From contig CP060227.1 of assembly GCA_023898525.1 (NCBI GenBank), positions 823,662-887,661 of the forward strand: a DNA stretch of 64,000 nt, in the 5' to 3' direction. The first letter of the stretch is position 1, and each line of letters starts with the position of its first letter. The notes below the pieces were generated by a model that was given only the letters and a program-made list of their open reading frames with translations, had not been told where the DNA came from and did not search any database. This stretch comes from Candidatus Nomurabacteria bacterium. Its GTDB lineage: Bacteria > Patescibacteriota > Minisyncoccia > Phycocordibacterales > UBA918. Positions 3,500-53,903 of this stretch are shown here, piece after piece. The position numbers and the translations under genes are program-made.

Positions 3500-4082
3500 G
3501 TATCGGTCATATAAACAAAACCATTTATTGAGTGGTGGTTTTGGTTTAGTTGAGATGATGGTTAGTATTGGAATATTAGTTTTAGTGATGAGTGTAATTC
3601 TGGCGAATCATCAAGCTTTTAATCATGCTGTACTCCTAAAAAGTCAGGCTTATGAAATAGCTTTTAAGGTTAGGGAAGCGCAGCTCTTTGCTGTTAGTGT
3701 GACCGGTGACTCTGGTGATTTTCGTAAAGTGTACGGCGTACACTTTAATGATAGTACCAGTAATGGTGTGTACAAAGTTTTTAGAGACAATAATGCGACC
3801 CAAAATTATTATTATGATTCTGTCAGTGAGGAATTTGGCGAGCAAGGAGTTTTAGACCCTAGGTTTGAGGTTTCGGATATTAGACTGCTTGGCAGTGCTG
3901 TTACACCAAATGATCTATCAATTATATTTACCAGACCAAATTTTGATGCCCGCTTTTTCACTGGACCACTAACAGAACCAGCTAATGTAACTGGGGCAGA
4001 GATCGATGTTCGTCTTCGTGGTTCGACTAGTCCAGTATATACAATTGAAATTACCAAAACCGGTCAGATTTCGGTAAAATAA
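3486..4082 (+). CDS. Pseudopilin / minor pilin with prepilin-type N-terminus
   Basis: GGFGLVEMMVSIGILVLVMSVILA fits the prepilin signature G-F-x-L-x-E plus a hydrophobic helix. Confidence 0.6.
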   Translation: MFQSKYRSYKQNHLLSGGFGLVEMMVSIGILVLVMSVILANHQAFNHAVLLKSQAYEIAFKVREAQLFAVSVTGDSGDFRKVYGVHFNDSTSNGVYKVFRDNNATQNYYYDSVSEEFGEQGVLDPRFEVSDIRLLGSAVTPNDLSIIFTRPNFDARFFTGPLTEPANVTGAEIDVRLRGSTSPVYTIEITKTGQISVK

Positions 4083-17000: not shown

Positions 17001-18960
17001 GGTGCCATTTGTTGAGAATGTCCAAAACCTTTCCTATACCTACGACACTGTCGGTAATATTACCGAGATAGTAGACAACAGCGGTACCGACTCCGCCGGT
17101 ACCATCACCTACACCTACGACGACCTCTACCGCCTTATCTCAGCTTCCACTACTAATGCTAGTACTACTCCATACCAAGAAACCTATACCTACAACAGTA
17201 TCGGTAACGTCCTCAGCAAGTCTGATGTTGGTACGTATAGTTATGATGGTGGACAGAGTGGAGGAACCAGCTACTACATCTATGACGATAGCATCACTAC
17301 CGGTTGGACAGACTGGTCTTGGTGGACTACCATCAACCCAAGCGCCACCTCTCCTGTCTACTCAGGACTCTATTCATTGGGGTTAGTATACACCCAACCC
17401 TGGGCTGGTATCTCTTATCACAACAACAGTTTCGACAGCTCACCATATGATAATCTAGAGCTGGCGGTTAATGTCGGTACCGACACTACAGCCAATCTCT
17501 ACCTCTATTTCACCAACAGTGCCAGTACACCTTTTACCATCATTAACCTAAAAGACTACGTCACCGGCGGTTTCCAAGCCAACACCTGGCACAGCCTCAC
17601 CATTCCACTTTCAGACTTAGGTTACCAAAACTATCAAGGCGCCACTGAACTAAACATAGAGACCGACCAAGCCGCGACAGTGAATTTTGACAGTATTCGT
17701 TTGACTAGTACCGGCGGAGGAGGAAGCTACGCCAACCCCCACGCTGCCACCACCATCGGCGGCACCACCTACACCTACGACCAAAACGGTAACCTCCTAA
17801 CCGACGGTAATACCACTAACACCTGGAACTACCGCAACGAACTAACTGAGTCCACAAAAGCAGGAATAACGACCAGCTATGGATATGACCACAATGGTGA
17901 TCGAGTGTTCAAGACTACTTCCGAAGGAACGACTTATTATCCTTTCGCTAATTACGAAATTACTGATACTGGTACTACCACAAAGCACATCTACATGGGT
18001 GACCAATTAGTTGCCACGATTGAAGGTTCTGGTGCTGGAGCGTTGACGTATTACAACCATCTTGATCATCTCGGTGGTACCAGTGTGGTAACCGATGGTA
18101 TTGGAGCTATCACCCAAGAATTGGACTACTACCCATTCGGTGATACGAGGATAGATAATGAGTACGGAGACTTTAGACAACATATTCAGCACTCAGGTCA
18201 CCAGAAAGACGATGAAACAGGACTCATCTACCAAGGTGCACGTTACTATAATTCTGGTATCGGACGATATACATCACAAGATCCAGCAAACTTACGAAAT
18301 CCAGCGCAGTTCCTCTATGACCCACAACAGTTAAATACCTATGCGTATGCAAGGAATAATCCACTGAAGTACATTGATCCTACGGGGGAGAAGATTGAGC
18401 TTGTTTCTAGACCAGTAATTTCTTCTTATGATGCACATATGTTCTATCGAGTTACTCCAGATAATCCAGGCCAGATTTCTATTGATGGAATTCCTCAGGG
18501 CACTGAACAGTTTTCGATAGGGGCTTACAACCGAGGTGGTTTCTTAGGTATCGGCAATAAATTGACTCCAGAGTTTAGTTACGAAGGAGGTCCAGTGAAT
18601 ACTGACACCCCATACTTAAACGGGGAAAAGGCGCCTACAGCAAGTGTTGTTATCACACCACCAAACAACATGTCAGATACAGAGTTTATTAACAGTCTTG
18701 GTGCTTCAGCAAATAGTATCGACAAGACAGGTTATTATATGTTTGGTAAAACTGGTAAATTTGGTGTAGCTAATTCAAATAACTTCGTATACGAAGTTGG
18801 TAATAGGAGTGGTGTTGGTAATCAGGTCAGCTCGTTCAATTCAGGTGCATATACTCCAGGACAGAGTCAAGGAATCCCAACTGCAACATTGCTTGATAAT
18901 ATAAGGTCTAGCCTGAACAGTATTAAGGAGAGATTGTCCAAAAAAGATGATAGCGAATAA
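11041..18960 (+). CDS. Giant secreted polymorphic-toxin protein (2639 aa): signal peptide, SpvB/TcB-like N-terminal domain, FG-GAP-like repeats, RHS/YD repeats, S/T-rich linker plus LamG/CBM-like insert, Rhs core, variable C-terminal toxin domain
   Basis: Signal peptide ASFVLALLLILGS. DxNGDGxxD repeats (FGDLNGDGLTDM, IDVNGDGLDDF, VDVNADGLPDIV...). Many YD repeats (YTYDALNRQ, YEYDRQGNQ, YTYDTVGNI). Rhs core GARYYNSGIGRYTSQDP...NTYAYARNNPLKYIDPTGE, followed by about 200 unique residues. Confidence 0.85.
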   Translation: MNYSIYKKPQTAGCVSNSFNLAITKSASFVLALLLILGSLENVSFAAVLTNGDAGYITNIQTRDGSDLFRSDVREGSGGFLYAYDIPVPPGVNGLTPQISLQYNSQGSSDQDILGYGWNLSIPYIERVNKHGINKLFDPAYETFYSSLSGELVFDGVDYLTKINQGDFMRYSRLSNGWVVTTKDGTEYHFGSDVVAQQSDPTDITNISRWYLSSITDTNGNMVSYSYVKDTGAIYPSTITYGPYTIVFTTEAAPTHSSYSLGFKVERDQRINAIEIKENTTIFTRHDLTYATGINTQRDLLETITQTDVITNTSLPAVIFDYGGEEIPHWQSDSSFVFPEPMGLQDNGVRFGDLNGDGLTDMIRYERYWNDIPSARWTARRVHINKGNGNWDIDVPWSWDDIETPFFLHINDGVFSNTDKRYDMGARLIDVNGDGLDDFVAAYNCLDWSSSDCSNAPNYMKEILGPIQMDVYLNSGSGFVKDGTNWLNLQAMSSWDYSPADMTNPGRAFVDVNADGLPDIVQSVATLNFGSHPSENVASNIWINTGNDWELSSLTLPAALAKYPWHPSYPNLRKFSDYGTRFADVNDDGLIDVLRGYRQSFSGSVNTYTDEKTVYINTGDGWEEDVSWNLPVEFVIQDQTSGYQMFDFNGDKLPDILQSHYHNNNGFSYNLYLNKGTTWHLENYSVNSTHYPVYPQPPFPLTRTAAYTGGGGTAMIDFDGDNLLDAWNLYYLDLDETQSSGGSVFLNTSDIPDLVTSIIDKSGSITSINYDGYLATVQSDYVKVGNSPVNPIVVTHKTIDNNHGHTVTETYEYNDAHQYVEVSDIFDRKFAGFGKVTKTTDLGKETTYYHQGNGVATTTEEGIDDEALIGQVYRTEITDLSDNLYTLSRQNFATTSLGNGSTFVKLESGLKLDYDGDSDKKASANSYTYDNTNGSLLTKTEWGEVSGNTDGTFSDTGTDKQVTTIEYATNANGIVLPSKQTLTDNSDTKVQESRFYYDNQPLGTVTLGNKTKEENWLGGSSYTNKQWTYNSLGLVTAETDPDGNTTNYTYDTYNLYPASVTNALNQTTQYEYDYSSGQVATTTDANGNIFATTYDGFGRPLTVTSPDPQTGTPVVQTEYVYTDTPGSVSVQKKDYLNSGLVKNSYTFLDGFGRKMQERQEAEGMDQYVVRDYVYGSNDLLEKESLPYFGTGAARSASTTNANLLSTYAYDPLARVTSVATVVGTTTTAYDQWKETVTDTAGNDKVFQYDAFGRLAAVTENEGTNSYTTNYTWNNLGNLTKITDAESNVRNISYDGLGRRTSLEDLHAPSDSTFGTWTFAYDNAGNLTSKTNPESQTTNYTYDALNRQLTEDYTGQTGTEITYTYDTCTGGVGQLCTAANSSATTNYTYTPNNLLASEAKTISSNTYTTSYEYDRQGNQTLITYPDNSEVKYTFNKGGQVDKVEQKEGGGTFANIVSNIDYGPHGQMENIEYGNGSITTRTYDATELYRLKNILTTATSTYGTGGPGEELISIEAKLASLTTELPLATTSEALVVETVEEPVEEMVATSSDLAIEPATSDSTTATSTNIEATSTNQEIAEAELTSTTTTTDEVVETSEIATTTTVAAPDATTTASSSSETATGTADQVVSVVEADVVFDIPTTTATSTLPAVPTAIASTSSNSTPPVAEAVVVNQVVAKSKLKLKINNAHEARMWQKYHHERVAGLEAEGANQAVLDKAKYAQDQLESYLIEDGYLKEKGGSVKGHAKDYVESQGKKLISKVVDFILPDTVQAYLFGLEDFENCSALPCTFDNNVSWGGVTPALDNTSKVAGADSLKETVTGEGSGGLEFVDQNTGEIYAQFKVFIPSNMTWGPSGYHGILRFEDTINNSVFWMNVEDWGTARLTMMGDVLPWTDTGIDLVKGAVNTIEVRFKTGATNGDVDIWLNNTNESAPDYNGSGTLNTGTDNVDYVIAGVTYTPEAISTTYFDDIAIDTTFIGELTSGGQPPVVPFVENVQNLSYTYDTVGNITEIVDNSGTDSAGTITYTYDDLYRLISASTTNASTTPYQETYTYNSIGNVLSKSDVGTYSYDGGQSGGTSYYIYDDSITTGWTDWSWWTTINPSATSPVYSGLYSLGLVYTQPWAGISYHNNSFDSSPYDNLELAVNVGTDTTANLYLYFTNSASTPFTIINLKDYVTGGFQANTWHSLTIPLSDLGYQNYQGATELNIETDQAATVNFDSIRLTSTGGGGSYANPHAATTIGGTTYTYDQNGNLLTDGNTTNTWNYRNELTESTKAGITTSYGYDHNGDRVFKTTSEGTTYYPFANYEITDTGTTTKHIYMGDQLVATIEGSGAGALTYYNHLDHLGGTSVVTDGIGAITQELDYYPFGDTRIDNEYGDFRQHIQHSGHQKDDETGLIYQGARYYNSGIGRYTSQDPANLRNPAQFLYDPQQLNTYAYARNNPLKYIDPTGEKIELVSRPVISSYDAHMFYRVTPDNPGQISIDGIPQGTEQFSIGAYNRGGFLGIGNKLTPEFSYEGGPVNTDTPYLNGEKAPTASVVITPPNNMSDTEFINSLGASANSIDKTGYYMFGKTGKFGVANSNNFVYEVGNRSGVGNQVSSFNSGAYTPGQSQGIPTATLLDNIRSSLNSIKERLSKKDDSE

Positions 18961-19440: not shown

Positions 19441-20200
19441 GGGGTCAGCCACCATTTATGATAAAATAAATGAATGCCAAGAATAAAAAGAGTAGATGTT
19501 GGTGGTGAAGTATATCACGTACTAAATCGTGCTAATGCTCGAGTGCAGATATTTGATAACAAAAAAGATTATCAGCAATTTGAAGAAATACTTGAAGAGG
19601 CTATTGAAAAATACGAAGTACCATTACTGGCATATTGTGTTATGCCAAATCACTGGCATATGGTACTGCAACCAAAACAAGATGGTGATATGCAGAAATT
19701 TATTGGGTGGCTTTCTAATACGCATACTCGTAGGTGGCATGTTACAAAAGATACAATAGGTCAAGGTCATCTATATCAGGGTCGATACAAATCATTTATT
19801 TGCGAACAAGACCATCACCTACTTACAGTTCTTAGATACGTTGAACGAAACGCTAAAAAAGCAAATTTAGTCAAAAAGGCTGAAGACTGGCAATGGTCAA
19901 GTGTATGGAGAAGAGAAAATGGTACTTTAGAACAAAAGAAAATATTAAGTAACTGGCCTATATCTATACCAAGAGACTATTTAAATCTTCTTAATAAACC
20001 TATGAATGAGTCTGAAGAAGAGGCTTTAGAAAAATCAGAAGAAAGAAGTATACCTTTTGGAGAAGAGGAGTGGGTTAATAGAAAAGTTAAAAAGTATGAG
20101 ATTGAACAAGTGTTACGGGGAGTAGGTAGACCTAAAAATGGTGGCTGACCCCATTTCTGACCCCATTTCCCCATTTCCACCATTTCCATTTCCGGAAAGG
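19441..20200 (+). mobile_element. REPtron-like unit: rayT gene flanked by inverted REP-like repeats, plus a CCATTTC tandem array
   Basis: GGGGTCAGCCACC at 19441-19453 and its exact reverse complement GGTGGCTGACCCC at 20140-20152. Then CCCCATTTC-type units repeat 5 times (20149-20200). Confidence 0.6.
19474..20148 (+). CDS. rayT: REP-associated tyrosine transposase RayT (Y1 HUH transposase, IS200-like fold) with a C-terminal extension
   Basis: YHVLNRAN. HUH motif PNHWHMV. GHLYQGRYKS. RYVERNAKKANLV...WQWSS. Confidence 0.8.
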   Translation: MPRIKRVDVGGEVYHVLNRANARVQIFDNKKDYQQFEEILEEAIEKYEVPLLAYCVMPNHWHMVLQPKQDGDMQKFIGWLSNTHTRRWHVTKDTIGQGHLYQGRYKSFICEQDHHLLTVLRYVERNAKKANLVKKAEDWQWSSVWRRENGTLEQKKILSNWPISIPRDYLNLLNKPMNESEEEALEKSEERSIPFGEEEWVNRKVKKYEIEQVLRGVGRPKNGG

Positions 20201-34114: not shown

Positions 34115-34612
34115 TTAGTTTGTCTTAGTTTTAGATCTCCTTTTAACATACTTATATTCGCGCCAGGTGAGCCAGACGACAAATATATCAAAGACGGTGA
34201 GTAGGATAAGAAAAACTGAGTGGGTGTGAGTGTAGCGATAAATTTGGTAAAAGATAAAAGTGGTAAAGACGATCATGGCAGAAGGGAAAGCCCACAGCTG
34301 TTCGCGAAGCAAACCAACGGCCAAGAGGAGTTTTGTGACCCCGTGGCTAAGGAGATAGATTGCCGCAAAAAGTTGAAAATCAGCAGCCAGGGAAGGGGTA
34401 TGGTTTAGAATAAAGTTGGCTAAAATATCACTAGGGTCTTCAATTAATTCTGATTGTATCAATTGCTTGATCAGGTCGGAGGTTGCTCCGTGGAATAAAA
34501 AAAGTATACCACCGATAATTTCCAGTATACCGTTTAGAGCTTTCAAAAAAACACTCCAGATGAATATCAGGTGAATGCGCTTTTCTTTCTCGACAGGATT
34601 TAGGTTAGACAT
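34115..34612 (-). CDS. Hypothetical 4-TM membrane protein (DUF2127-like)
   Basis: 165 aa, hydrophobic. Confidence 0.45.
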   Translation of the reverse strand: MSNLNPVEKEKRIHLIFIWSVFLKALNGILEIIGGILFLFHGATSDLIKQLIQSELIEDPSDILANFILNHTPSLAADFQLFAAIYLLSHGVTKLLLAVGLLREQLWAFPSAMIVFTTFIFYQIYRYTHTHSVFLILLTVFDIFVVWLTWREYKYVKRRSKTKTN

Positions 34613-34684
34613 GTGGTAAGTATACGATATGTCTTACGTTATGAACAATTGTTCGGTAAGTGATTTTTTGAGACAATTATAATT

Positions 34685-34987
34685 ATGTCGAAAGGGGTAT
34701 ACGAACTAAAATCAAAGATACTGGTTTATCCAGGTATGTCGGGGTGGCGGTTTTTGGTTTTACCAAAAAAAGAAAGTGTAGAAATAAAAGAAAAGTTTGG
34801 AAAGCAAGCGAGGGGATGGGGTTCGCTGCCGGTATCAGTCACGGTAGGGAAAACGACCTGGGAAACCTCTATTTTTCCAGATCGTAAGTCAGGGACTTAT
34901 ATTTTGCCGCTTAAGGCAAAGATCAGAAAAGCGGAGGAGATATATGATGATGATACAGTGCGGTATGTGATGGAAATTAGTATTTAA
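34685..34987 (+). CDS. DUF1905 domain protein
   Basis: Pattern ILVYPGMSGWRFLVLP...GWGSLPVSVTVGKTTWETSIFP. Confidence 0.55.
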   Translation: MSKGVYELKSKILVYPGMSGWRFLVLPKKESVEIKEKFGKQARGWGSLPVSVTVGKTTWETSIFPDRKSGTYILPLKAKIRKAEEIYDDDTVRYVMEISI

Positions 34988-42530: not shown

Positions 42531-44372
42531 ATGAAAATAATAAAATTACTGTTTGACAGAGAACATTGGGTGGAGATCGCAGCGATAGTGGTGGTAGGTT
42601 TGGCTAGTTTACTTTTTTCTCTGGAGATCATATCAATACCAATTTTGGTAGCGGCTATTTTGCTCGGTGCTTACCCAATTGCTAAGGAAGCTCTTCTAGA
42701 CCTGTTTACTAAGAAAAAAATTGGCACCGAGTTATTTATTACGGTAGCGGTGGCGGTCGCTCTCTTGGGTGGGGAGTATCTGGCTGGGGCTGTGGTCTTG
42801 ATGATTATTTTGATCGCTGAATACATTGCTAGTGTTTCGGGAGAAAGAGCTAGGGCGTCAATCCGTGACTTAATTGGTACAGTACCAAAAACCGCTATTA
42901 TTAAATGTGGTGACAAACAACTGACAGTTGACTTAGCTTCGATAAAAATTGACGACATAGTTTTGGTAAGGGCTGGCGATAAGATACCGGTTGATGGGGT
43001 GGTGGTGGCTGGTAACGGGTTTGCTAATCAAGCACCGATTACCGGTGAGAGTTTACCGCAGGGTAAGATGGTTGGTAGCGATGTTTATGCTGGTACCATA
43101 TTGGAGTCTGGCGCTCTTGATATCAGAGTCACTAAGCTAACGGAAGACACGGTTTTCTCGAGAATCATTGCTCTGGTTGAGGAGGCGGAAAGTCGGGAGC
43201 CGTTGATTCAGAAGTTTACTGATCGGGTAGCGACTTGGTTGATTCCAATCGCCTTTGTATTTGTGGCGGTGGTCTATTATTACACTCAAGATATAAAGTT
43301 GATTATCGCGCTGTTGATCTTTACTTCTCCGGCTGAGCTTGGACTAGCTACACCTTTGGTGACTATATCGGCGGTGGCCAGAGCGGCGCGCGAGGGTATA
43401 TTAGTAAAAGGTGGCTTGTATCTTGAAGCTTTGGCTCGGGCTGACACTTTCGTATTTGATAAAACTGGTACTTTGACACTGGGGGACTTGAAGGTAGATA
43501 AGATTCGGGTGTTTGACCGAAATTTTGATGAAAGGGAGGTATTGTCTATTGCTGCAGCGGCCGATAGTCGGTCTGGTCATCCTTTGGCCAAGACTATTGT
43601 TGAGTACGCTAAGGAGATAAATGTTTCGCATATTGCACCGACTGAGTTCGCGGTTTTGGATGGTCGAGGCGTAAAAGCAACTGTTGGCGGTAAACAGGTT
43701 TTGGTTGGAAATGTGACTTTAATGCATGAGAATTCTGTAGATCTGCCGAGTGACGTTAAAATTACTGATGACACGACTGTCTACGTGGCAATGGAGGGTA
43801 AATTGGTCGGGGCTATTTTAATTAGTAGTATTGTCAGGCCGGGAGCAAGAGCGGCTATCCAATCATTAAAAGCTGGCGGGGTGAAAAAAGTGATGATGCT
43901 AACCGGAGACAATGAGGAAGCGGCTAAGAAGATAGCCTCTCAACTAGCGATTGATGAGGTAAGAGCTGATTTATTACCGGAAGATAAAATTAAGATCGTA
44001 GACCAATTGCAGTCCGAAGGTCGGCTGGTAGCGATGGTGGGTGACGGTGTCAATGACGCACCGGCGCTAGCGGCTGCTAGTGTGGGGGTGGCTATGGGTT
44101 CAGTCGGGACCGGGTCAGCGATGGAGGCCGCCGATATAGTCTTAGTAAATGATGATCTGGAGAAACTGGCTCACGCTCGAGCAATCAGTAGCCGGGCTTA
44201 TAAAACAATTCGAGAAAACATTTTTGTTGGAGTTGGAGTGGTGCATGTGGTGGGAATTATTCTGGTTTTAACTCATGTGATCGGTCCGATTCAGGCGGCA
44301 ATTATTCACTTGGTGCCTGATACTTTAGTGTTTTTGAATTCTATTAAGTTACTGAAAGTTAAAATTTACTAA
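42531..44372 (+). CDS. P1B-type heavy-metal P-type ATPase with variant TM6 motif SPA (no N-terminal metal-binding domain)
   Basis: DKTGTLT, GDGVNDAPAL and TGES motifs. TM6 reads FTSPAELGLATP instead of CPC. Confidence 0.75.
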   Translation: MKIIKLLFDREHWVEIAAIVVVGLASLLFSLEIISIPILVAAILLGAYPIAKEALLDLFTKKKIGTELFITVAVAVALLGGEYLAGAVVLMIILIAEYIASVSGERARASIRDLIGTVPKTAIIKCGDKQLTVDLASIKIDDIVLVRAGDKIPVDGVVVAGNGFANQAPITGESLPQGKMVGSDVYAGTILESGALDIRVTKLTEDTVFSRIIALVEEAESREPLIQKFTDRVATWLIPIAFVFVAVVYYYTQDIKLIIALLIFTSPAELGLATPLVTISAVARAAREGILVKGGLYLEALARADTFVFDKTGTLTLGDLKVDKIRVFDRNFDEREVLSIAAAADSRSGHPLAKTIVEYAKEINVSHIAPTEFAVLDGRGVKATVGGKQVLVGNVTLMHENSVDLPSDVKITDDTTVYVAMEGKLVGAILISSIVRPGARAAIQSLKAGGVKKVMMLTGDNEEAAKKIASQLAIDEVRADLLPEDKIKIVDQLQSEGRLVAMVGDGVNDAPALAAASVGVAMGSVGTGSAMEAADIVLVNDDLEKLAHARAISSRAYKTIRENIFVGVGVVHVVGIILVLTHVIGPIQAAIIHLVPDTLVFLNSIKLLKVKIY

Positions 44373-44441
44373 ACCAGATTTATTTTTGAAAGAAATCTAG
44401 TTTCAAAATTAGCTTTATTTAATTTGTGCTATACTCGGTGT

Positions 44442-44876
44442 ATGTTAAAAGAATTTGTAGTTAGATGTCGAGCCGTAATACTGCACGAAGGTAAGTTGTT
44501 GGTGGTGAGGCATGTTCATGATACATCGTACGTATGTTTGCCTGGTGGACACTTGGAGTTTGGAGAGGATGTTATATCCTGTCTGAAGCGAGAAATTGTC
44601 GAAGAATTGGGGATTGAGCCTGAGGTTGGACAATTGCTTTATGTAAATACTTTTACGGTTGGTGATATTAAACAACCGGTAGAATTTTTCTTTGCGGTTA
44701 AAAACTCAGCTGATTATCTGAAGATTGGTGAAAACGAAAGAACTCATGCTCATGAGTTAGAAGATTTTGAGTGGATTGCGCCGACTGATGGGGTTAGACT
44801 GTTGCCGGAAAAATTTGCTGAGGATTTTCGGGCTGGTCGCATAGACTTAGACAAGACTAAATTTTTGATGGGTTAA
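44442..44876 (+). CDS. NUDIX hydrolase
   Basis: Nudix box GGHLEFGEDVISCLKREIVEELGI. Confidence 0.7.
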   Translation: MLKEFVVRCRAVILHEGKLLVVRHVHDTSYVCLPGGHLEFGEDVISCLKREIVEELGIEPEVGQLLYVNTFTVGDIKQPVEFFFAVKNSADYLKIGENERTHAHELEDFEWIAPTDGVRLLPEKFAEDFRAGRIDLDKTKFLMG

Positions 44877-44881
44877 GATCT

Positions 44882-45256
44882 ATGAATGAAGGACAGAAAA
44901 TTAGATGGTACGCTTTTGACTTTGATGGTGTGATTGCCGAATATGAAGGTTTTAAAGGGAAGAATCATTTCGGTAAACCAAACAAAGTAATAGTTGAAAC
45001 TATAAGAAGGTTAAAAGAAATGGGTCACAAGATCATTGTCTATTCTACACGAGGAGAAGAATTTCTTAAGAAATACTGTAGTGATAATAATATACCAGCA
45101 GATTATTTTAATAAAAACCCTGAGTTAGAAGGAGATAATCCAGGCAAACCCATAGCTTACGTTTATGTTGATGACAGAGCTGTTTGTTATAAAGGACAGG
45201 AAAGTGAACGGTTGCTAGAAGAAATTTTAAGTTTTAAAGCTTATTGGGAAAAATAA
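44882..45256 (+). CDS. HAD-superfamily phosphatase-like small protein
   Basis: Motif I FDFDGVI. 124 aa. Confidence 0.5.
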   Translation: MNEGQKIRWYAFDFDGVIAEYEGFKGKNHFGKPNKVIVETIRRLKEMGHKIIVYSTRGEEFLKKYCSDNNIPADYFNKNPELEGDNPGKPIAYVYVDDRAVCYKGQESERLLEEILSFKAYWEK

Positions 45257-45284
45257 AACTTGACAACTCTGGTATGATTAAAGC

Positions 45285-47294
45285 ATGGAGCACGTACATC
45301 ATAGCGGGCATGGACATGGTTCTGGAACGGGTCATGGTTCTGCCGAGATTTTTTTGAAACGATTTTGGGTCGTAACTTTTTTGTTGATTCCACTGGTGTT
45401 CGCTAACCAGATGGTAATGCAGGCAGTAGGGCTTCAGGCTCATACTCTAAGTAAGTGGTTTGGTTTTTTTATTGCGACGGTGATATTTGGCTTTGCCTTA
45501 GTTTTTTTTGAACACGCTTGGCACGAGATAAAGGCTAAGCAGTACGGCATGATGACGTTGGTGTCGCTGGCGGTGGGAGCTGGGTATTTATTTTCGGTAG
45601 TGGCGACTTTTGTGTCAACACTTGAGGCTGATTTTTATTTAGAAATATCAACGCTTATTTGGGTGCTGATGTTTGGTCACTACCTGGAAGCCAGGTCGGG
45701 AGCGGCGGCGGGTAATGCTTTGTCAGAAGTAGCGAAGCTTCTGCCTAAAAAGGCGCATCGTTTGATTGGTGATAGAGAGGAGGAGATTGAGATAAGTGAG
45801 CTCAAGGTTGATGATTTGGTCCTGGTAAAACCGGGTGAAAAAATTCCAGCTGACGGTGTGGTTTCGTTGGGTGTAGCAAATGTTAACGAAGCTCTAATTA
45901 GTGGTGAGTCAAAGCCGTTGTCAAAAAAGGCTGGAGACGAAGTGGTGGCTGGGTCTATTTGTCTTGATGGTTCTTTAACTATCCGTCTAACTAGGGTCGG
46001 TGAACATTCAACTATCGGTCAGATTAAAAATTTGATCGCTAAGGCAGAAATGACTAAGCCTAAGTCACAACGGCTGGCCGACAAAGCGGCGGCAATTTTG
46101 ACCGCGGTGGCGGCTATTACTGCACTTTTGACTGTTTTGGTGTGGTCGCTAATTTTAGGTGAGACTTTTGTTTTCTCAATTACACTCGCTATTACAGTTT
46201 TGGTGATTGCGTGTCCACATGCGCTTGGGTTGGCGATACCAACAGTCACTACCATAACCACCTCAATTGCAATTAAAAGCGGCTTTTTTATCAAAAATCT
46301 AGCCAAGCTAGAAGTACTGAAAAAGGTCAACTATGTTGTGTTTGATAAGACGGGTACTCTAACGACTGGAGAATTTGGTGTAAATGAAGTGGTGGCGGTT
46401 GGTGACGAAGTTGAAGCTAATGTATTAGCAGTAGCGGCATCGTTAGAACAACATTCATCGCATATTATCGGTCAGTCAATAGTAGCAGATGCAAAAAATA
46501 AGAACTTGCAGCTTCATCAAATTTTGAATTTCAAAAATATCGCCGGTAAGGGTGTACAAGCTGAGATAGATGAGGAGATATACGTGGTCGGTAACGTGGC
46601 TATGATGGAATCTTTTGGCGTCGAAATTGAAACTGTGAAAGAAAAATATATAGAATTATCGAGCAAAGGTAAGACGGTGGTGTTTGTGGCTAAACAAAAA
46701 AAGATAATCGGTCTTATCGTCTTGTCTGACGCTATTAAAAAAGAAGCTTTTCTGGCGGTTGAACGTTTACACGGTTTGGGTGTGAAGGTGGCTATGTTGA
46801 CTGGCGATAATCAAGCGGTAGCCAAAGCCGTAGCTGAAGAGTTAAAAATTGATACGTACTTCGCCGAAGTTTTGCCGGAAGATAAATACCAGCATATTAA
46901 GTCTCTGCAAGAAAGAGGTGGAGTAGTGGTGATGGTGGGTGATGGTGTAAACGACGCTCCGGCTTTGACTCAGTCTGATGTCGGAGTGGCAATCGGCGCT
47001 GGGACAGATGTGGCGGTGGAGGCTGGAGATGTGGTGTTGACCCGCAACAATCCGGAGGATGTGGCTCGACTCATAATCTTGGCCAAAAAAGTTTATGTAA
47101 AAATGGTACAGAATTTAGTGTGGGCACTTGGTTACAATATCATTGCTATTCCAGCGGCGGCTGGTGTGTTCGCTAGTCAATTTTTCTTTGGCGGTTTTCT
47201 TTTAAGACCGGAAATCGGTGCTTTAATAATGAGTCTCTCGACAGTAATAGTTGTAGCTAATGCTCTATTGTTGAAGCGAGTCAATCTTAAGTAG
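45285..47294 (+). CDS. CopB-type (P1B-3) copper-transporting P-type ATPase with a His-rich N-terminus
   Basis: N-terminus MEHVHHSGHGHGSGTGHGS. CPH motif in TM6 (IACPHALGLAIP). DKTGTLT. GDGVNDAPAL. Confidence 0.8.
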   Translation: MEHVHHSGHGHGSGTGHGSAEIFLKRFWVVTFLLIPLVFANQMVMQAVGLQAHTLSKWFGFFIATVIFGFALVFFEHAWHEIKAKQYGMMTLVSLAVGAGYLFSVVATFVSTLEADFYLEISTLIWVLMFGHYLEARSGAAAGNALSEVAKLLPKKAHRLIGDREEEIEISELKVDDLVLVKPGEKIPADGVVSLGVANVNEALISGESKPLSKKAGDEVVAGSICLDGSLTIRLTRVGEHSTIGQIKNLIAKAEMTKPKSQRLADKAAAILTAVAAITALLTVLVWSLILGETFVFSITLAITVLVIACPHALGLAIPTVTTITTSIAIKSGFFIKNLAKLEVLKKVNYVVFDKTGTLTTGEFGVNEVVAVGDEVEANVLAVAASLEQHSSHIIGQSIVADAKNKNLQLHQILNFKNIAGKGVQAEIDEEIYVVGNVAMMESFGVEIETVKEKYIELSSKGKTVVFVAKQKKIIGLIVLSDAIKKEAFLAVERLHGLGVKVAMLTGDNQAVAKAVAEELKIDTYFAEVLPEDKYQHIKSLQERGGVVVMVGDGVNDAPALTQSDVGVAIGAGTDVAVEAGDVVLTRNNPEDVARLIILAKKVYVKMVQNLVWALGYNIIAIPAAAGVFASQFFFGGFLLRPEIGALIMSLSTVIVVANALLLKRVNLK

Positions 47295-47330
47295 TGGCAC
47301 CAAGAGCAGAGGGTTGGTATAATTGCATTA

Positions 47331-47732
47331 ATGACAACTAAAATCGTGGAAGTGGTAAGGAAAATAGCTTCTGCTTTTATTTTTGTGGCTTTTGCTAGTG
47401 TTCTGTTTTTTAGTCTGTTTCATTTACACAATATTGGTGTTACTGGTATGTCTGATTGTCCGTTTATGTCTCATCAAGAGACAGTTTGTCCGATGAGCTT
47501 GATTGATCATATTGAGGCTTGGAAGACTATGTATATAGCGGTCATGCCCACTATTGTTTTTGTGTTGATGGTTTTACTACTAGTTTCAATTGCTCCAAAC
47601 TTATTATTTAGCTTTCCAATATTACGGGCATCTTTTATAAAACAACGACTGAGAGAGCTGACCTATACTTTTTATTCGCGATATTTACAAGAATTTTTTT
47701 CAGATGGTGTTTTAAATCCCAAGTCATTTTAA
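47331..47732 (+). CDS. Small membrane protein with a CxxC/CP-containing Cys/Met cluster (CPFMSHQETVCPM); candidate copper-handling accessory protein
   Basis: 133 aa, 2-3 TM. The Cys/Met cluster sits between the TM helices. Located between copB-like and the multicopper oxidase. Confidence 0.4.
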   Translation: MTTKIVEVVRKIASAFIFVAFASVLFFSLFHLHNIGVTGMSDCPFMSHQETVCPMSLIDHIEAWKTMYIAVMPTIVFVLMVLLLVSIAPNLLFSFPILRASFIKQRLRELTYTFYSRYLQEFFSDGVLNPKSF

Positions 47733-47775
47733 GTATTTCTGAGTAAATTATTATTAGGCTTAATTAAGATTTAAG

Positions 47776-49425
47776 ATGAAATACGCATTAATTTTTATCG
47801 GTATAGCAATATTAGTGTTGGCTGCTGTGATTGGGTACGGTACATACAACGAATCAGACGATGTTTATCCGCACGGCACGATGATGGGTGGTAATTATGA
47901 TTACAATCGTGAGGGCGGTGATTTGACCAAGCTTTTAGACGACACTGTACCTTTGGTTAAACCAACTGAAGTAGTTGAACTCAAAGATGGTGATACTTTT
48001 GATCTGACAGCTTCAATTGTGAAACGGGAGGTGGGAAATCGAATGATAAAAAGGTTAGCTTACAACGGTCAGATACCTGGTCCAATTATAAAAGTTGAGA
48101 AGGGGGCAAAGGTAACTGTAAATTTTAAGAATGAAATTGATATGGAAACAGCACTTCATTCACACGGTTTACGGGGAGACTACCGGTTTGACGGGGCCAC
48201 TCCTTTGAGTCAAAAGCCAATTCCGGTTGGTGAAACTTTTACCTATGAACTTGAGTTTCCTGACGCTGGTATCTATTGGTATCATCCGCATGTGCGTGAA
48301 GATTATCAGCAAGAGCTGGGACTTTACGGCAACATGGTGGTGACGGAGCTGGGGTACTGGAACGAGGTTGGACAAGAAGAATATTTAATTCTAGATGATT
48401 TTCTAAAGGGAGGAGAATTTAGTTCAGAAAGTGTAACTCATACCATGATGGGCCGGTTTGGTAACACTTTATTGATTAATGACCGTTCTGACTATTCTTT
48501 AGAGGTAGAAAAAGGTAAGGTTACAAGATTGTATTTGACAAACGTTGCTAACACACGAACTTTCGACGTTACCTTACTGGGGGCTGAGGTAAAGTTGGTG
48601 GGAGGCGATAATGGTCGAATTGAACACGAAAAAATGGTTGACGATGTGATTATTGCTCCAGCTGAGCGCTATGTGTTGGAAGTCTTGTATTCAAAAGCTG
48701 GAACTTACCAAATTGTTCATCAAGGTAAAAAGATCGGTACAGTAATAGTTAGGGACGGAGGAGATGGTGAAATCGTACCGTTTGAGAAACTTCGTTCGAA
48801 TGATGATTATCTAACTATTCGTCAGAGTATGTCTGATTGGTTAAGTAAAGATCCTGATAAGAAATTGAGATTAGATATAGAAGTGGCTGGTGATATGGTC
48901 GGTATGATGACTGCTTCTGATGATGAACATGGTGATGATGCAATGCGTGAACATTGTCGAATGATGCCGGATATGCCGGGCTGTGAATCATATTTGGAAG
49001 ATGATGATCATAGCGGTGGTCATAATGACGGAATTGAGTGGGAAGATAACATGCTCATGATGAATAGCATGAGTACTGATAAAAATACTAAGTGGGTAAT
49101 TGAAGATCAGGAGACGGGTAAGAAAAATAGTGATATCAGTTGGAATTTTGAAGCTGGACAGATGGTTAAAGTTTCTATTTACAACGATGAAAAAGGTTTA
49201 CATCCGATGCAGCACCCAATTCACTTTCACGGACAGAGATTTGTAGTTTTGGCGGTTGATGGTAAAGCTAATGATAACTTACAGTGGAAAGATACGGTTT
49301 TGATCCCAAAAGGACAGACAGTGGACATTTTGGTTGATATGAGCAATAAAGGAGAGTGGCTGGCACACTGCCACATTGCTGAGCATATGCATGCTGGGAT
49401 GATGTTTGATTTAATTGTTGAATAA
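47776..49425 (+). CDS. Multicopper oxidase (CueO/laccase-like) with a Met/His-rich insert
   Basis: Copper ligands HSHGL, WYHPH, HPIHFHG and HCHIAEHMHAGMM. N-terminal signal/TM. Confidence 0.85.
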   Translation: MKYALIFIGIAILVLAAVIGYGTYNESDDVYPHGTMMGGNYDYNREGGDLTKLLDDTVPLVKPTEVVELKDGDTFDLTASIVKREVGNRMIKRLAYNGQIPGPIIKVEKGAKVTVNFKNEIDMETALHSHGLRGDYRFDGATPLSQKPIPVGETFTYELEFPDAGIYWYHPHVREDYQQELGLYGNMVVTELGYWNEVGQEEYLILDDFLKGGEFSSESVTHTMMGRFGNTLLINDRSDYSLEVEKGKVTRLYLTNVANTRTFDVTLLGAEVKLVGGDNGRIEHEKMVDDVIIAPAERYVLEVLYSKAGTYQIVHQGKKIGTVIVRDGGDGEIVPFEKLRSNDDYLTIRQSMSDWLSKDPDKKLRLDIEVAGDMVGMMTASDDEHGDDAMREHCRMMPDMPGCESYLEDDDHSGGHNDGIEWEDNMLMMNSMSTDKNTKWVIEDQETGKKNSDISWNFEAGQMVKVSIYNDEKGLHPMQHPIHFHGQRFVVLAVDGKANDNLQWKDTVLIPKGQTVDILVDMSNKGEWLAHCHIAEHMHAGMMFDLIVE

Positions 49426-49557
49426 AAAACTAATAAATCAGTCAAACAATAAAACCATCAGTTTAAACTGATGGTTTTATTGTTTGAGCGGCAAGAGATC
49501 CTTACTCGTGCTATAATGTGAAATGTCATTAAACAGTTTAGAAATTTTAGAATATTT

Positions 49558-50403
49558 ATGTCAAAGACTATAAAAATATCCTATGTGGCGTTAGTTGTAT
49601 CAATAGTTGGCCTTTTGGCCACTACTGTGTACGCTAATCATGCTTGGGGTAAATATCATTGGAATTTATCAACTCAGGATACTATTGATAATCCTTTAAA
49701 ATTGGGGAATAACCTAACCTCAGTCGATTGGGATTCAAGCCTTAATTTAGCAGCGGTTGATTGGAATCAGTCAGTGATCAAAAATCAGATTGTAGCGGGA
49801 GCCGGTCAAACTAATTGTGATCCGGTGCTGGGTCAAGTGGAGGTGTGTAATGGTGAATACGGAAACAACGGCTGGTTAGGCATCGCTCAGATCTGGACCT
49901 ATCGTGGTAAAGAAGCGCACATTGCTCAGGCGGTAACTATGATGAATGATACCTACTTCAATTTACCACAGTACAACACTAGCGCTTGGAAAAATATGGT
50001 TATGTGTCAAGAAGTCGGTCACACTTTCGGACTAGCTCATCAAGATGAAGATTTTTATAATCTAAACCTAGGTTCTTGTATGGACTACACTAGTGATCCA
50101 ACTGGTATACTTGGTACTAACGGTACCTTAAACAACGAAAGACCAAACCAACATGACTATGATGAATTACAATTAATCTACGCTCACCTAAACGACACAA
50201 CGAGTGGTGGTAGTAAGCCAGGTAAAGGGTCCGGTGGCAAGAAGAGATTGGGTTCGACTACTGTAAACCCAGCTGAATGGGGACAGGCAATTGCGCAAGA
50301 TGCTCAAGGCAAGAATTCAGTTTATGTTAGAAATTTGGATAATGGAATGCAGTTGATTACTCATGTACTTTGGGTTCCAGGAGAAGAGCAGGATCATCAT
50401 TAA
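49558..50403 (+). CDS. Secreted metzincin-like protein with variant motif QEVGHTFGLAH (QExxHxxGxxH)
   Basis: Signal/TM MSKTIKISYVALVVSIVGLLATTVYA. Zinc-binding-like motif with the first His replaced by Gln. Confidence 0.4.
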   Translation: MSKTIKISYVALVVSIVGLLATTVYANHAWGKYHWNLSTQDTIDNPLKLGNNLTSVDWDSSLNLAAVDWNQSVIKNQIVAGAGQTNCDPVLGQVEVCNGEYGNNGWLGIAQIWTYRGKEAHIAQAVTMMNDTYFNLPQYNTSAWKNMVMCQEVGHTFGLAHQDEDFYNLNLGSCMDYTSDPTGILGTNGTLNNERPNQHDYDELQLIYAHLNDTTSGGSKPGKGSGGKKRLGSTTVNPAEWGQAIAQDAQGKNSVYVRNLDNGMQLITHVLWVPGEEQDHH

Positions 50404-50424
50404 TTTATAAAACTCTAAGTTGAG

Positions 50425-50468
50425 TAGACCAAAAGCCGCGCCATTTTATGGCGCGGCTTTTGGTCTAC
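50425..50468 (+). terminator. Rho-independent terminator (about 18-bp stem)
   Basis: GTAGACCAAAAGCCGCGCCATTTTATGGCGCGGCTTTTGGTCTAC. Confidence 0.7.
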
Positions 50469-50478
50469 CGTTTACTAT

Positions 50479-50508
50479 TTGACATTAGTACGTCCGTACT
50501 AATATAAT
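50479..50508 (+). promoter_or_regulatory. Sigma70-like promoter (TTGACA-18-TATAAT) with an embedded candidate LexA operator TAGTAC-N4-GTACTA
   Basis: -35 TTGACA at 50479-50484. Palindrome TAGTACGTCCGTACTA at 50486-50501. -10 TATAAT at 50503-50508. Lies directly upstream of lexA. Confidence 0.5.
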
Positions 50509-50515
50509 AATAGTA

Positions 50516-51094
50516 ATGAAAGATTACAAAACTAAACTCTCAAGTTTTTATAATCAACATCAGCGGATGCCAACTTATAGTGAGCTCATGAGTTTGTTGG
50601 GTTATAAAAGTAAAGGGGCGGTGCGCTACTTGGTGGACAAGTTGGTCACTGGTGACTTACTGGCTAAGGATAAAATTACTGGTCGACTAGTACCGGGTAA
50701 GAAGTTTTTAGCTGATGAAAAAGTACCTCTCTTGGGCTTGGTCGAGGCTGGGTTTCCGTCTCCAGCTGAAGAAGAGGTGCAAGACACAATTAGCTTTGAT
50801 GAATATTTGCTTCCTAACAAAGAGTCTACTTATATCCTAAAGGTGAAAGGTGACTCCATGATTGAGGCCGGTATTCGTGATGGGGATATGGTGGTGGTAG
50901 AAAGGAGGGGTGGTTATAAACCCGGGCAGATTGTGGTTGCTTCAGTTGATGGTGAGTATACTCTTAAGTATTTACGTAAGAAGGATAATCTTCTTTATCT
51001 AGAACCAGCCAACAAAAACTATAAGCCAATTTATGCCAAGGAAACCTTAACTGTCGATGCGGTGGTAACAGCGGTGGTTCGTAAATATTTATGA
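50516..51094 (+). CDS. lexA: LexA repressor (S24 peptidase)
   Basis: N-terminal wHTH. Catalytic VKGDSM (Ser) and RDGD..VV...K (Lys). Confidence 0.85.
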   Translation: MKDYKTKLSSFYNQHQRMPTYSELMSLLGYKSKGAVRYLVDKLVTGDLLAKDKITGRLVPGKKFLADEKVPLLGLVEAGFPSPAEEEVQDTISFDEYLLPNKESTYILKVKGDSMIEAGIRDGDMVVVERRGGYKPGQIVVASVDGEYTLKYLRKKDNLLYLEPANKNYKPIYAKETLTVDAVVTAVVRKYL

Positions 51095-52395
51095 CCTGGG
51101 GAACTTCAATTTTGTGGCCAAAAGCCATCCTTCATATTGACGGAGATTCATTTTTTGCGGCTTGTGAAGTGGCCAAAAAACCTCACTTAAAGGGAAAGCC
51201 GGTTGTTACCGGCCAAGAGAGAGGAATTGTCTCAGCCGCTACTTATGAAGCAAAGGCTCTTGGGGTTAAGCGGGGGATGAGCTTATCTGAAGTTAGGAGA
51301 CTTTACCCGGAAGTGATTTTTTTACCGTCTGATTTTGAAACCTACCATCTATTTTCTCGGCGAATGTATGAGATTGTCAGGCGTTATACACCAGCAGTAG
51401 AAGAATATAGTATCGACGAGTGTTTTGCTGACTTGGGTGGAATGCAGCGGGTAAACAAAATGTCGTATGAGAAGATGGCAGAGCGAATCAAGTATGAACT
51501 TGAGCTGGAGTTAGGAATAACTTTTTCGGTTGGCTTGGCTCCGACTAAGGTTTTGGCCAAGATTGGTTCAAAGTGGCAGAAGCCATCTGGTTTAACTCTG
51601 ATTCCGATGATTGAAGCTAATAATTTTTTGATTAAAACACCAATTGAGAGTGTTTGGGGGATTGGTGGTAGTACAGCAGCTTTTCTTTCAAAATACCAAA
51701 TAAGAACGGCCCAAGATTTTGTTAACCTTAGTCAAGGTTGGGTGGAACAAAATTTAGCTAAGCCGATTGTAGAGGTCTGGCGGGAGTTGCGGGGGCAGGC
51801 AGTTTACAAAGTCGATGCTGCCGGTAGGCAAAGTTACCAGTCGCTCAGTAAGACAAAAACTTTTACACCACCGTCGACGGATTTTGATTACGTATTTTCC
51901 CAGTTGTCTAGAAATATCGAAAATGCTTGCCTTAAGGCTAGGTCTTGGAACTTGGTTACCGAAACAATTTTCTTTTTTCTTAAGACTCAGGATTTTAAAT
52001 ATCACGGTTGTGAGATAAAATTACCTTATCCGACAGCGGTTCCGCAAGAGATTATCTCGGCAATAAAGCCTTATTACCAAAAAATTTTTAGGGATAACGT
52101 GCGATATCGAGCCACTGGTGTAACTTTAATGAAGTTGCAAAGTGGTTTAGAAACTCAATTAGACTTATTCGGAGCTGTTACAAAATCTGAGGGTTTAACG
52201 AAAATATTTTCCAGTGTCGATGAAATATCAGCTCGTTATGGTAGACATACGGTTTTCTTAGGTTCTAGTTTGTTAGCTAAAAACGAGAGAAAATGGGGGA
52301 GTGAAGCAAAAGAACCGGCTAAGAATAATGATCTATTTAAAGGGGGGATGCCTAAACGACGATTAAATATACCGATGCTCGGTGAGATTGGCTAA
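51091..52395 (+). CDS. dinB: Y-family DNA polymerase IV (DinB-like)
   Basis: ILHIDGDSFFAACE motif. SIDECF motif. Its start overlaps the lexA stop. Confidence 0.85.
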   Translation: MTWGTSILWPKAILHIDGDSFFAACEVAKKPHLKGKPVVTGQERGIVSAATYEAKALGVKRGMSLSEVRRLYPEVIFLPSDFETYHLFSRRMYEIVRRYTPAVEEYSIDECFADLGGMQRVNKMSYEKMAERIKYELELELGITFSVGLAPTKVLAKIGSKWQKPSGLTLIPMIEANNFLIKTPIESVWGIGGSTAAFLSKYQIRTAQDFVNLSQGWVEQNLAKPIVEVWRELRGQAVYKVDAAGRQSYQSLSKTKTFTPPSTDFDYVFSQLSRNIENACLKARSWNLVTETIFFFLKTQDFKYHGCEIKLPYPTAVPQEIISAIKPYYQKIFRDNVRYRATGVTLMKLQSGLETQLDLFGAVTKSEGLTKIFSSVDEISARYGRHTVFLGSSLLAKNERKWGSEAKEPAKNNDLFKGGMPKRRLNIPMLGEIG

Positions 52396-52496
52396 GTTTT
52401 TGGGTAAGAGGTTGCAATTTTAAACGTCAGGAATAATATGTTAAGTACAATAGTTCTTTGTGTTGAATGGCGAATTAGTAGTTAGACAAACTTATT

Positions 52497-53903
52497 ATGA
52501 ATATGAAAATTTTAAAAAATACAATCAACATAGCTCTAATTGTTGCTCTGGTTATACCGGTAGCTATGTTTGTGACTGTTCCTAAAGCCGAGGCGGCTTG
52601 TAGTTACCAAGGGTTTATCAGTTCACATGGTAAATGTGCTAAATCTTTTAAGTCTGAACATTATTATGAACATGACGATGAAGACGAAGATGAGGGTGGT
52701 GACGATGGTTATCGGTACCGCAACTTTTACGGTGATGATTACTATAATTCACAAATCTCACGGTTGTTGGCTTTAATAGCGCAATTACAGGCTTTGTTAG
52801 ATGTGCGTAATGGTACATCATATGGCGATAACGCTGAGATTGATGTTACTACCCAGTCTGCTATATCAATCAATGACGACAGTGCTACTTTGCGGGGAAT
52901 TATTGATTTTAATAATTCTGAGACTGCTAGGGTTTGGTTTGAGTACGGTACTAGTCTAAATAACCTAAACCGAGAAACCTCTAAAATAAATCTCGACGAC
53001 ACTGACCCAAGTACTTTTAGTAAGACTGTGACTGACCTTGATGACAATACTCGATATTACTTCAGAGCGGTCGGGGAGGATGAAAATGGCGACGAAGATC
53101 GTGGTGTTCGCTTAAGTTTCATCACTGATAGAAGTGGTGCTTCAGGTAATAGTGATGAGCCTGTAGCCACAACCGAAGAGGCTGAAAATGTTGACGAAGA
53201 TAGTGCTGAATTAAACGGTTCAGTTGATATGAACGACTTTGATAATGGCCGAGTCTTCTTTGTTTATGGCGAGGATGAGGGTATGGTTGAAGATGTTGAG
53301 GATGATTACGATAAGTACGTAGAGGTTGAGGAGTCTGGTGATAATTTACAAAAAGTGTTGGTAGATTCTGATCTGGATACAGATGATGATTATGCTCGGG
53401 TGGTTAACAGCCTAAATACAGATACTGAGCATTACTTTGCGATGTGTGTCGAGTATGAAAACGAAGATGGTGATGATGTATTGACCTGTGGTTCGGTTGA
53501 GAATTTTACAACTGACGATACTTCGGCTAATTATGAATATCCGACTGCTAATACAAGTGATGCTGACCTAGTAACATCGACTTCTGCTGAACTAAACGGT
53601 TCAGTTGATATGAACGACTTTGATAACGGTCGAGTTTTCTTTGTGTACGGCACTAATGAAAGTGAGATTTCAGATATTGCTGATGATTATGATACTTACA
53701 CAGGAATTGTAGAAGATGAAAATCTTTTTAAGGTTAGTGTAGATGCTGATCTTGATGGAGTAGATTCATACACTGAAAAAGTTGAAGAACTTGAAGCTGA
53801 TACTGAGTACTTTACCAGTATTTGTGTCCAGTTTGAGAATGAAGATAATGATGACACTCTAGTTTGTGGTGATGTTGAGAGGTTCAAGACTGACGCTAGC
53901 TAG
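52497..53903 (+). CDS. Secreted acidic protein with three tandem about 110-aa repeats of unknown function
   Basis: Signal peptide. Repeated AELNGSVDMNDFDNGRVFFVYG...DTEYF..ICV.FENEDxDD blocks. Confidence 0.5.
   Translation: MNMKILKNTINIALIVALVIPVAMFVTVPKAEAACSYQGFISSHGKCAKSFKSEHYYEHDDEDEDEGGDDGYRYRNFYGDDYYNSQISRLLALIAQLQALLDVRNGTSYGDNAEIDVTTQSAISINDDSATLRGIIDFNNSETARVWFEYGTSLNNLNRETSKINLDDTDPSTFSKTVTDLDDNTRYYFRAVGEDENGDEDRGVRLSFITDRSGASGNSDEPVATTEEAENVDEDSAELNGSVDMNDFDNGRVFFVYGEDEGMVEDVEDDYDKYVEVEESGDNLQKVLVDSDLDTDDDYARVVNSLNTDTEHYFAMCVEYENEDGDDVLTCGSVENFTTDDTSANYEYPTANTSDADLVTSTSAELNGSVDMNDFDNGRVFFVYGTNESEISDIADDYDTYTGIVEDENLFKVSVDADLDGVDSYTEKVEELEADTEYFTSICVQFENEDNDDTLVCGDVERFKTDAS

Follow-up and report, generated by a model that had tools for sequence, protein, structure and literature searches.

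Organization of the lexA locus

The 64-kb window analysed here, by which we mean the whole 64,000-nucleotide stretch taken from a Candidatus Nomurabacteria metagenome-assembled genome (MAG; Patescibacteria/Parcubacteria), contains a lexA gene that is followed directly by a gene coding for a DinB-like Y-family DNA polymerase. The spacer of the lexA promoter is filled by a perfect palindrome with GTAC arms, which is very probably a LexA operator, and comparison with orthologous promoters indicates that the type of this operator follows a single residue of the LexA recognition helix. The products of the two genes are identical to GenBank entries USN87603.1 and USN87604.1, and the features of the locus are listed below in window coordinates, with + denoting rightwards-transcribed features.

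50424-50468, +: G+C-rich hairpin with a 20-pair stem, 21 nt past the stop of the upstream gene (49558-50403)
50479-50484, +: -35 hexamer TTGACA, part of a 12/12 promoter match; TTGAC is kept in orthologous lexA promoters
50484-50503, no strand: predicted LexA operator, a 20-bp perfect palindrome, ATTAGTACG-tc-CGTACTAAT, filling the promoter spacer
50485-50502: 18-nt spacer between the -35 and -10 hexamers, TTAGTACGTCCGTACTAA
50503-50508, +: -10 hexamer TATAAT, ending 7 nt before the lexA ATG
50516-51094, +: lexA, 192 aa (ATG 50516, TGA 51092-51094; GenBank USN87603.1, 'repressor LexA')
51091-52395, +: Y-family translesion DNA polymerase, DinB-like, 434 aa (GenBank USN87604.1, 'DNA polymerase IV')

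The lexA promoter is the sole 12/12 match in the region 49400-52700, and an exact TTGACA-N16-18-TATAAT occurs once in the window, with 0.075 expected in shuffles. An initial annotation of this DNA had described a TTGACA-18-TATAAT promoter with a palindrome in its spacer; both are present, and the inverted repeat is longer than was described, with arms of 9+9 around a 2-nt centre and one base in common with each promoter hexamer. The operator core is AGTAC-N4-GTACT (AGTACGTCCGTACT at 50487-50500), with arms and centre reading GTAC-gtcc-GTAC, and its arms do differ from those of the Cheo box GAAC-N4-GTTC, as had been proposed, with one change per arm.

There is no Shine-Dalgarno sequence in the seven bases between the -10 hexamer and the lexA ATG. 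The same is true of the relatives, where the -10 hexamer ends 6-7 nt before the lexA start codon, an arrangement kept throughout the family; this short, conserved gap suggests that the transcripts are leaderless, and the lexA mRNA of the window, with its predicted transcription start, is probably leaderless as well. The hairpin at 50424-50468 ends eleven bases ahead of the -35 hexamer and has a weak T-tail; it is a probable terminator of the upstream gene and would isolate the lexA promoter from upstream transcription.

The window has many perfect 8+8 palindromes (35, compared with about six in shuffles), the majority looking like terminator hairpins, and the palindrome by itself is therefore weak evidence of an operator; it is the comparison with orthologous lexA promoters that marks the site as more than chance. 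A reading of the palindrome as an RNA hairpin or terminator was considered and rejected, as the predicted transcription start is downstream of the site and what is kept is its DNA sequence rather than pairing.

LexA and the downstream polymerase

The first gene had been identified as lexA, and this assignment is borne out. Its product passes the NCBIfam equivalog model TIGR00498 over residues 10-190 (117.8 bits, cut-off 110.95), its C-terminal part is an S24 peptidase domain (Pfam PF00717, E 4.5e-30), and the cleavage site A78-G79 and the catalytic pair S114 (in GDSM) and K151 are invariant in an alignment of 27 homologues. A PDB search with the single sequence places E. coli UmuD (8gmt_B) at the top with LexA close behind, and a profile search built on the 27 homologues places full-length E. 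coli LexA first (98 bits), followed by UmuD (86 bits) and LexA C-terminal fragments (79 bits). The AlphaFold2 model, with a mean predicted local distance difference test (pLDDT) score of 75 and values of about 80-89 in the N-terminal domain, has helices at residues 4-15, 21-28 and 33-45 and a beta-hairpin at 49-60, followed by the S24 fold. Its top Foldseek matches are to the full-length LexA structures 3k2z and 3jso, the latter a LexA-DNA complex. The N-terminal fold is assigned because the NCBIfam model, the PDB profile search and the AlphaFold2/Foldseek comparison agree, the Pfam LexA_DNA_bind model giving no match there, and we conclude that the 192-aa protein is a LexA-type repressor with a predicted N-terminal winged helix-turn-helix and a predicted self-cleaving S24 domain.

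The protein also has features in common with UmuD: residues 77-188 pass the UmuD NCBIfam model NF007621 (113.3 bits, cut-off 110), and the sequence after the cleavage site reads GFPSPA, as in UmuD. It differs from UmuD, which is a protein of about 140 aa without a DNA-binding domain and paired with UmuC, in its length of 192 aa and its winged helix-turn-helix. It differs similarly from the UmuDAb/umuDC arrangement in that its alignment with LexA spans the whole protein, the LexA model is passed, and the neighbouring polymerase is nearer to Pol IV than to UmuC models.

The polymerase has the Pfam domains IMS, IMS_C and IMS_HHH, and its PDB matches are Pol IV and Dpo4 structures, the best of all being Pol IV 7yll. 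It falls below the cut-off of all ten NCBIfam models scored, the best being Pol IV PRK02794 (228 bits, cut-off 371), with the UmuC model at 158 bits (cut-off 431). The name dinB, used in the initial annotation, is thus supported by the Y-family domains and by best scores on Pol IV models, but is approximate, and 'DinB-like Y-family polymerase' is the defensible name for the predicted product.

As had been observed, the lexA stop overlaps the start of the polymerase gene in an ATGA (ATG 51091-51093, TGA 51092-51094), through which the polymerase is predicted to be translationally coupled to lexA. The arrangement of the two genes as an operon is supported both by this overlap and by the gene order of relatives, with an orthologous polymerase (40-70% identity) directly downstream of lexA in most of their loci. 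The lexA-polymerase pair is also found in MAGs labelled Nitrospirota, Verrucomicrobia and Gammaproteobacteria, and is not found in betaproteobacterial LexA2 loci. This type of LexA is thus joined to a single subfamily of Y-family polymerases in a two-gene cassette kept in several phyla.

Variations on this arrangement include a GIY-YIG gene adjoining the polymerase gene in two loci (L211 and L085) and an RNase_T (exonuclease) gene between lexA and the polymerase gene in another (L216). The polymerases of the lexA cassette also have a common C-terminal tail, R(R/K)RLxIPMLGE(V/I) (52330-52395 in the window, and in relatives), which may be a sliding-clamp-binding or partner-binding peptide. The gene arrangement itself is routine, both genes already have names in GenBank, and the operator motif is a known variant.

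Predicted operators in orthologous lexA promoters

The loci used for comparison comprise 80 from a scan of species-representative genomes together with those from twelve look-ups of individual homologues. Approximately 50 orthologous lexA promoters, covering Patescibacteria, Nitrospirota, the Verrucomicrobia/Lentisphaerae group and betaproteobacterial LexA2, have a 4+4 dyad with a 4-bp spacer located between a TTGAC-like -35 and a TAnnnT -10. Such a dyad is present in nearly all lexA promoters of the family. In the Patescibacteria it starts 27-29 nt upstream of the lexA ATG, with a fixed position of -28/-29, and it stays in place across dozens of orthologous promoters despite the divergence of their flanks.

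Two types of dyad are seen at this position. The majority type in the lexA family is AGAAC-N4-GTTCT or TGAAC-N4-GTTCA, and the minority type, GTAC-N4-GTAC, is found in the window, in its closest relative P0002, in Methylophilaceae LexA2 (including Methylobacillus flagellatus) and in a few others. Among close homologues of the window lexA, eight have the GTAC type and 14 the GAAC type; P0002 (LexA 71% identity) has the GTAC type, TTCGTACgggcGTACGAA, and the next-closest relatives, P0003 and P0006 (LexA 66-67% identity), have AGAAC-N4-GTTCT. The LexA2 proteins of Gallionellales and Methylophilaceae belong to the same protein family as the LexA of the window. Orthologous promoters thus do keep a dyad at the same place, although in most of them it is of the GAAC type and not the palindrome of the window. 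The palindrome is read as very probably a LexA operator because the orthologous dyad occupies the same position and because, as described below, the type of dyad varies together with the recognition helix of LexA.

Both dyad types have counterparts among known LexA boxes. GAAC-N4-GTTC is the validated LexA box of Firmicutes, Actinobacteria and Gallionellales (PMC4951493). The window site shares with this Cheo box the 4-bp inverted arms, the 4-bp spacer, the location in the lexA promoter and a winged helix-turn-helix LexA as its reader; it differs in having GTAC/GTAC arms, with T for A at the third base of each arm, and in being lengthened to a 20-bp palindrome that takes up the promoter spacer exactly. 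The predicted operator is a GAAC-N4-GTTC box with T for A at one position per arm, of a known kind, and would work as the Cheo box does while being a sequence variant of it. The dyad AGTAC-N4-GTACT is identical to that of the cyanobacterial LexA box, RGTACNNNDGTWCB, with the consensus AGTACWNWTGTACT (PMC3091678). Cyanobacteria are a different phylum, and the match is one of the DNA dyad. Cyanobacterial sites are moreover often imperfect with an AT-rich centre, whereas the window site is perfect, has G..C beside the arms and has a centre that is not W-rich.

The initial annotation had suggested that the palindrome may be a lineage-specific LexA operator. The operator part of this suggestion is supported by the conserved position and the helix covariation, but lineage specificity is not, given the cyanobacterial consensus, the GAAC operators of near relatives and the scattered distribution of the GTAC type. 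From the promoters compared, the GTAC dyad appears to follow one helix residue and not a lineage, and is not a new lineage-wide motif.

Covariation of operator type with LexA residue 37

Residue R37 of the window LexA lies in the predicted helix 33-45 and aligns, by the alignment offset, with Glu44 of E. coli LexA, one of the helix III residues that contact DNA (PMC3091678). Across 66 loci, the operator is GTAC/GTAC in 14 of 14 cases where residue 37 is R, T, Q or E, and GAAC/GTTC in almost all of those where it is A, F, H, N, S, G, Y or K. The dyads of L212, L213 and L021 were read by eye, as automatic picking took a wrong, more distant palindrome. The last of these, with R at position 37, has GTAC arms separated by a 5-bp instead of a 4-bp spacer, GAGTACGaatCGTACTC.

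This association was put to a blind test, in which homologues were picked by helix sequence alone and their promoters were fetched afterwards. None of the seven predictions failed (GTAC for R, R, T, R and Q; GAAC for A and S), as listed below together with two homologues for which no prediction was made.

P0024: residue 37 R; predicted GTAC; observed TTAGTAC-N4-GTACTAA
P0009: residue 37 R; predicted GTAC; observed TTAGTAC-N4-GTACTAA
P0030: residue 37 T; predicted GTAC; observed TTAGTAC-N4-GTACTAA
P0032: residue 37 R; predicted GTAC; observed TTAGTAC-N4-GTACTAA
P0103: residue 37 Q; predicted GTAC; observed TTAGTAC-N4-GTACTAA
P0044: residue 37 A; predicted GAAC; observed AGAAC-N4-GTTCT
P0087: residue 37 S; predicted GAAC; observed AGAAC-N4-GTTCT
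P0104: residue 37 E; no prediction; observed GTAC
P0050: residue 37 D; no prediction; observed GTTCT half-site (contig truncated)

Because the blind predictions held, a chance association is unlikely. Three distant LexA proteins (41-44% identity) that were found through the DNA pattern only also have R or Q at position 37, the helix of one of them reading YKSKGAVRYVVKKL compared with YKSKGAVRYLVDKL in the window. With the helix masked, a crude neighbour-joining tree intersperses the GTAC types with the GAAC types, a distribution suggesting that the operator has switched more than once, and we infer from these patterns that residue 37 has repeatedly acted as the switch between GAAC and GTAC operators.

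The family therefore offers closely related LexA proteins (55-71% identical) with two operator types in an otherwise identical promoter, a natural experiment in the co-evolution of a factor and its operator. The operator type is predictable from one recognition-helix residue, which could become a specificity rule for the annotation of LexA boxes where bacteria are uncultured; this rule is the modest added value of the analysis, and is directly testable.

Proposed regulation and alternative explanations

It is a core feature of the SOS response that LexA regulates its own gene and controls an error-prone polymerase. We consider it highly likely that the two genes form a self-repressed, damage-inducible operon with the palindrome as its autoregulatory LexA operator. 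A LexA dimer would bind the 20-bp palindrome within the spacer of the sigma-70-type promoter and exclude RNA polymerase; upon DNA damage, RecA filaments would promote LexA self-cleavage at A78-G79 through S114 and K151; and the promoter so freed would give a leaderless mRNA from which LexA and, by translational coupling, the DinB-like polymerase would be made. The binding, repression and RecA-dependent cleavage in this scheme are predicted from established LexA biology.

Several observations weigh against this interpretation. Within the LexA protein, the N-terminal 79 residues give no match to Pfam LexA_DNA_bind (PF01726), even at E = 10, and the C-terminal domain resembles UmuD no less than it resembles LexA. 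The covariation has exceptions, namely L014 (Y with GTAC), L056 and the hybrid sites of L017 and L028, and the 66-locus counts carry no correction for shared ancestry. The pattern TAGTAC-N4-GTACTA, with two or fewer mismatches, is found once in the 64-kb window, at the lexA site, and is not enriched there, and no further site was found in about 150 kb of the relatives' flanks. Finally, in 42 of the 80 metagenomic loci listed, a TetR-family gene (PF00440) begins 9 nt downstream of the exact 18-mer TTAGTACGNNCGTACTAA.

The paucity of sites bears on the possibility that the LexA of the window is a cassette-local regulator, similar to betaproteobacterial LexA2 or to UmuDAb of Acinetobacter, a precedent for such regulators (PMC8565304), which would repress its own mutagenesis cassette only; the palindrome would still be its operator. 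We regard this as unlikely, though with a genuine chance of being correct. One strong site in 64 kb and none in the relatives' flanks would fit, as would the UmuD-like C-terminal domain, the membership of Gallionellales and Methylophilaceae LexA2 in the family of the window LexA, and the lexA-polymerase pair travelling as a unit across MAGs with several phylum labels. However, the protein passes the LexA equivalog model, two LexA proteins would be unlikely in a genome of about 1 Mb, and in relatives the operator region is common to, or duplicated before, genes of other kinds.

These genes are of three kinds. In L108 a gene for an SOS-response-associated peptidase (SRAP) is divergent from lexA. 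In L166, a 1.36-kb contig, an identical 26-nt promoter-operator block, TTGACTGATTAGTACGATCGTACTAA, is present twice (598-615 and 1329-1346), one copy preceding an NYN-domain gene and the other preceding lexA. In L210 (2308-3001) and L214 (358-1055), an HhH-GPD DNA glycosylase gene is divergent from lexA across a region of about 78 nt that includes the operator, one of the two being of the GTAC type and the other of the GAAC type. From their positions, these neighbours hint at a small regulon. In a comparative study of 2017, Sanchez-Osuna, Barbe and Erill reportedly described a Patescibacteria SOS network with a small regulon centred on translesion synthesis.

A further idea, that LexA has a dual role, is rather doubtful: the intact protein would be a repressor, and the cleaved C-terminal fragment would serve as a UmuD'-like subunit of the coupled polymerase. 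The UmuD-like sequence, from which a fragment starting with GFPSPA as in UmuD', and more like UmuD than LexA C-terminal domains, would be produced, and the umuDC-like overlap of the genes fit this idea, and the polymerase, which is not UmuC-like, counts against it; the proposed switching of operators by residue 37 is the better supported of the two. Were the dual role true, the two genes of the cassette would together amount to lexA plus umuDC in compact form.

The TetR matches raise the alternative that another regulator, such as a TetR-family protein, uses the palindrome as its operator and controls lexA. The TetR loci with the 18-mer are mostly soil or peat contigs of 66-71% G+C with TTGAC just upstream, including the following examples from the loci L087-L166.

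L092, 2942-2959: 18-mer upstream of a TetR-family gene
L124, 1061-1078: 18-mer upstream of a TetR-family gene
L088, 5306-5323: 18-mer upstream of a TetR-family gene

Among the metagenomic matches listed, the 18-mer is upstream of lexA homologues in three of 80, and the remainder are miscellaneous sites or long hairpins. The 18-mer has the look of a widespread operator of autoregulated, leaderless TetR genes that coincides with the LexA box, and because TetR promoters make up most of the matches listed, it does not by itself identify a LexA site; searches by pattern alone will assign such sites wrongly. For the window, a foreign regulator of lexA is very improbable, as the TetR loci mostly belong to G+C-rich organisms unrelated to that of the window, there is no TetR-family gene among the window open reading frames (ORFs) scanned, and a foreign regulator would not explain a lexA-promoter dyad whose type follows the LexA helix.

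A chance or structural feature with no regulatory role (a hairpin, or paired GTAC restriction or methylation sites) can practically be dismissed: perfect 8+8 palindromes are indeed frequent and the motif is not enriched in the window, but the dyad is held in place across dozens of promoters with diverged flanks, neither chance nor a foreign regulator explains its covariation with the helix, and its location upstream of the predicted transcription start puts it outside the lexA mRNA.

Other candidate sites in the window

The initial annotation had pointed to recA, uvrA and ruvAB as genes that might carry further copies of the palindrome. None of them is found in the window by a Pfam survey of nearly all ORFs of at least 100 aa, and the fetched loci include one recA, in a Burkholderiales locus. 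The survey did identify ligA, type IV pilus genes, a giant RHS-repeat protein, two IS200-type transposases, copper ATPases, a multicopper oxidase, a two-component system and an integrase.

The relaxed pattern GWAC-N4-GTWC gives five sites in the window compared with 3.4 expected, and the intergenic ones, at 34643 and 52445, are not beside a repair gene. The more restrictive AGWAC-N4-GTWCT gives two matches, compared with a shuffle mean of 0.34 (P(>=2) = 0.04), and a second site of this type was not seen in the relatives' loci. Beyond the operator at lexA, one feature is noted:

52444-52457, no strand: possible second, weaker LexA-type site, the hybrid GTAC/GTTC dyad AGTACaataGTTCT, 41 nt upstream of ORF 52497-53903

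Whether this dyad is a second LexA site or a chance occurrence is uncertain. A weak promoter-like TTGCAA-16-TAATAT is located just upstream of it, and the ORF that follows codes for a very acidic, repeat-rich protein of 468 aa with an N-terminal hydrophobic segment.

A perfect dyad of the canonical Cheo type, GAACAATTGTTC, is present at 34643-34654 in a 72-nt intergenic region between the divergently transcribed genes for a DUF2127 membrane protein (34115-34612, leftwards) and a DUF1905 protein (34685-34987, rightwards). It is probably unrelated to the lexA operon, because the residue-37 rule predicts that the LexA of the window prefers GTAC. A perfect palindrome with GTAC arms and a 3-bp spacer, AAGTGTACG-g-CGTACACTT, lies at 3727-3745 inside ORF 3486-4082 of the type IV pilus cluster, and is probably coincidental.

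Genomic surroundings

A metal-handling cluster (42531-50403) is located directly upstream of the lexA operon and includes genes for two P-type ATPases (42531-44372 and 45285-47294) and the multicopper oxidase (47776-49425). Also in the cluster is ORF 49558-50403, which codes for a 281-aa secreted protein that has an HxxGHxxGxxH-like motif and no Pfam match. The giant ORF (11041-18960) codes for 2639 aa with RHS repeats and an SpvB-like N-terminal region, a toxin-like architecture of the polymorphic-toxin kind in a reduced genome of about 1 Mb, and is followed by an IS200-type transposase gene (19474-20148).

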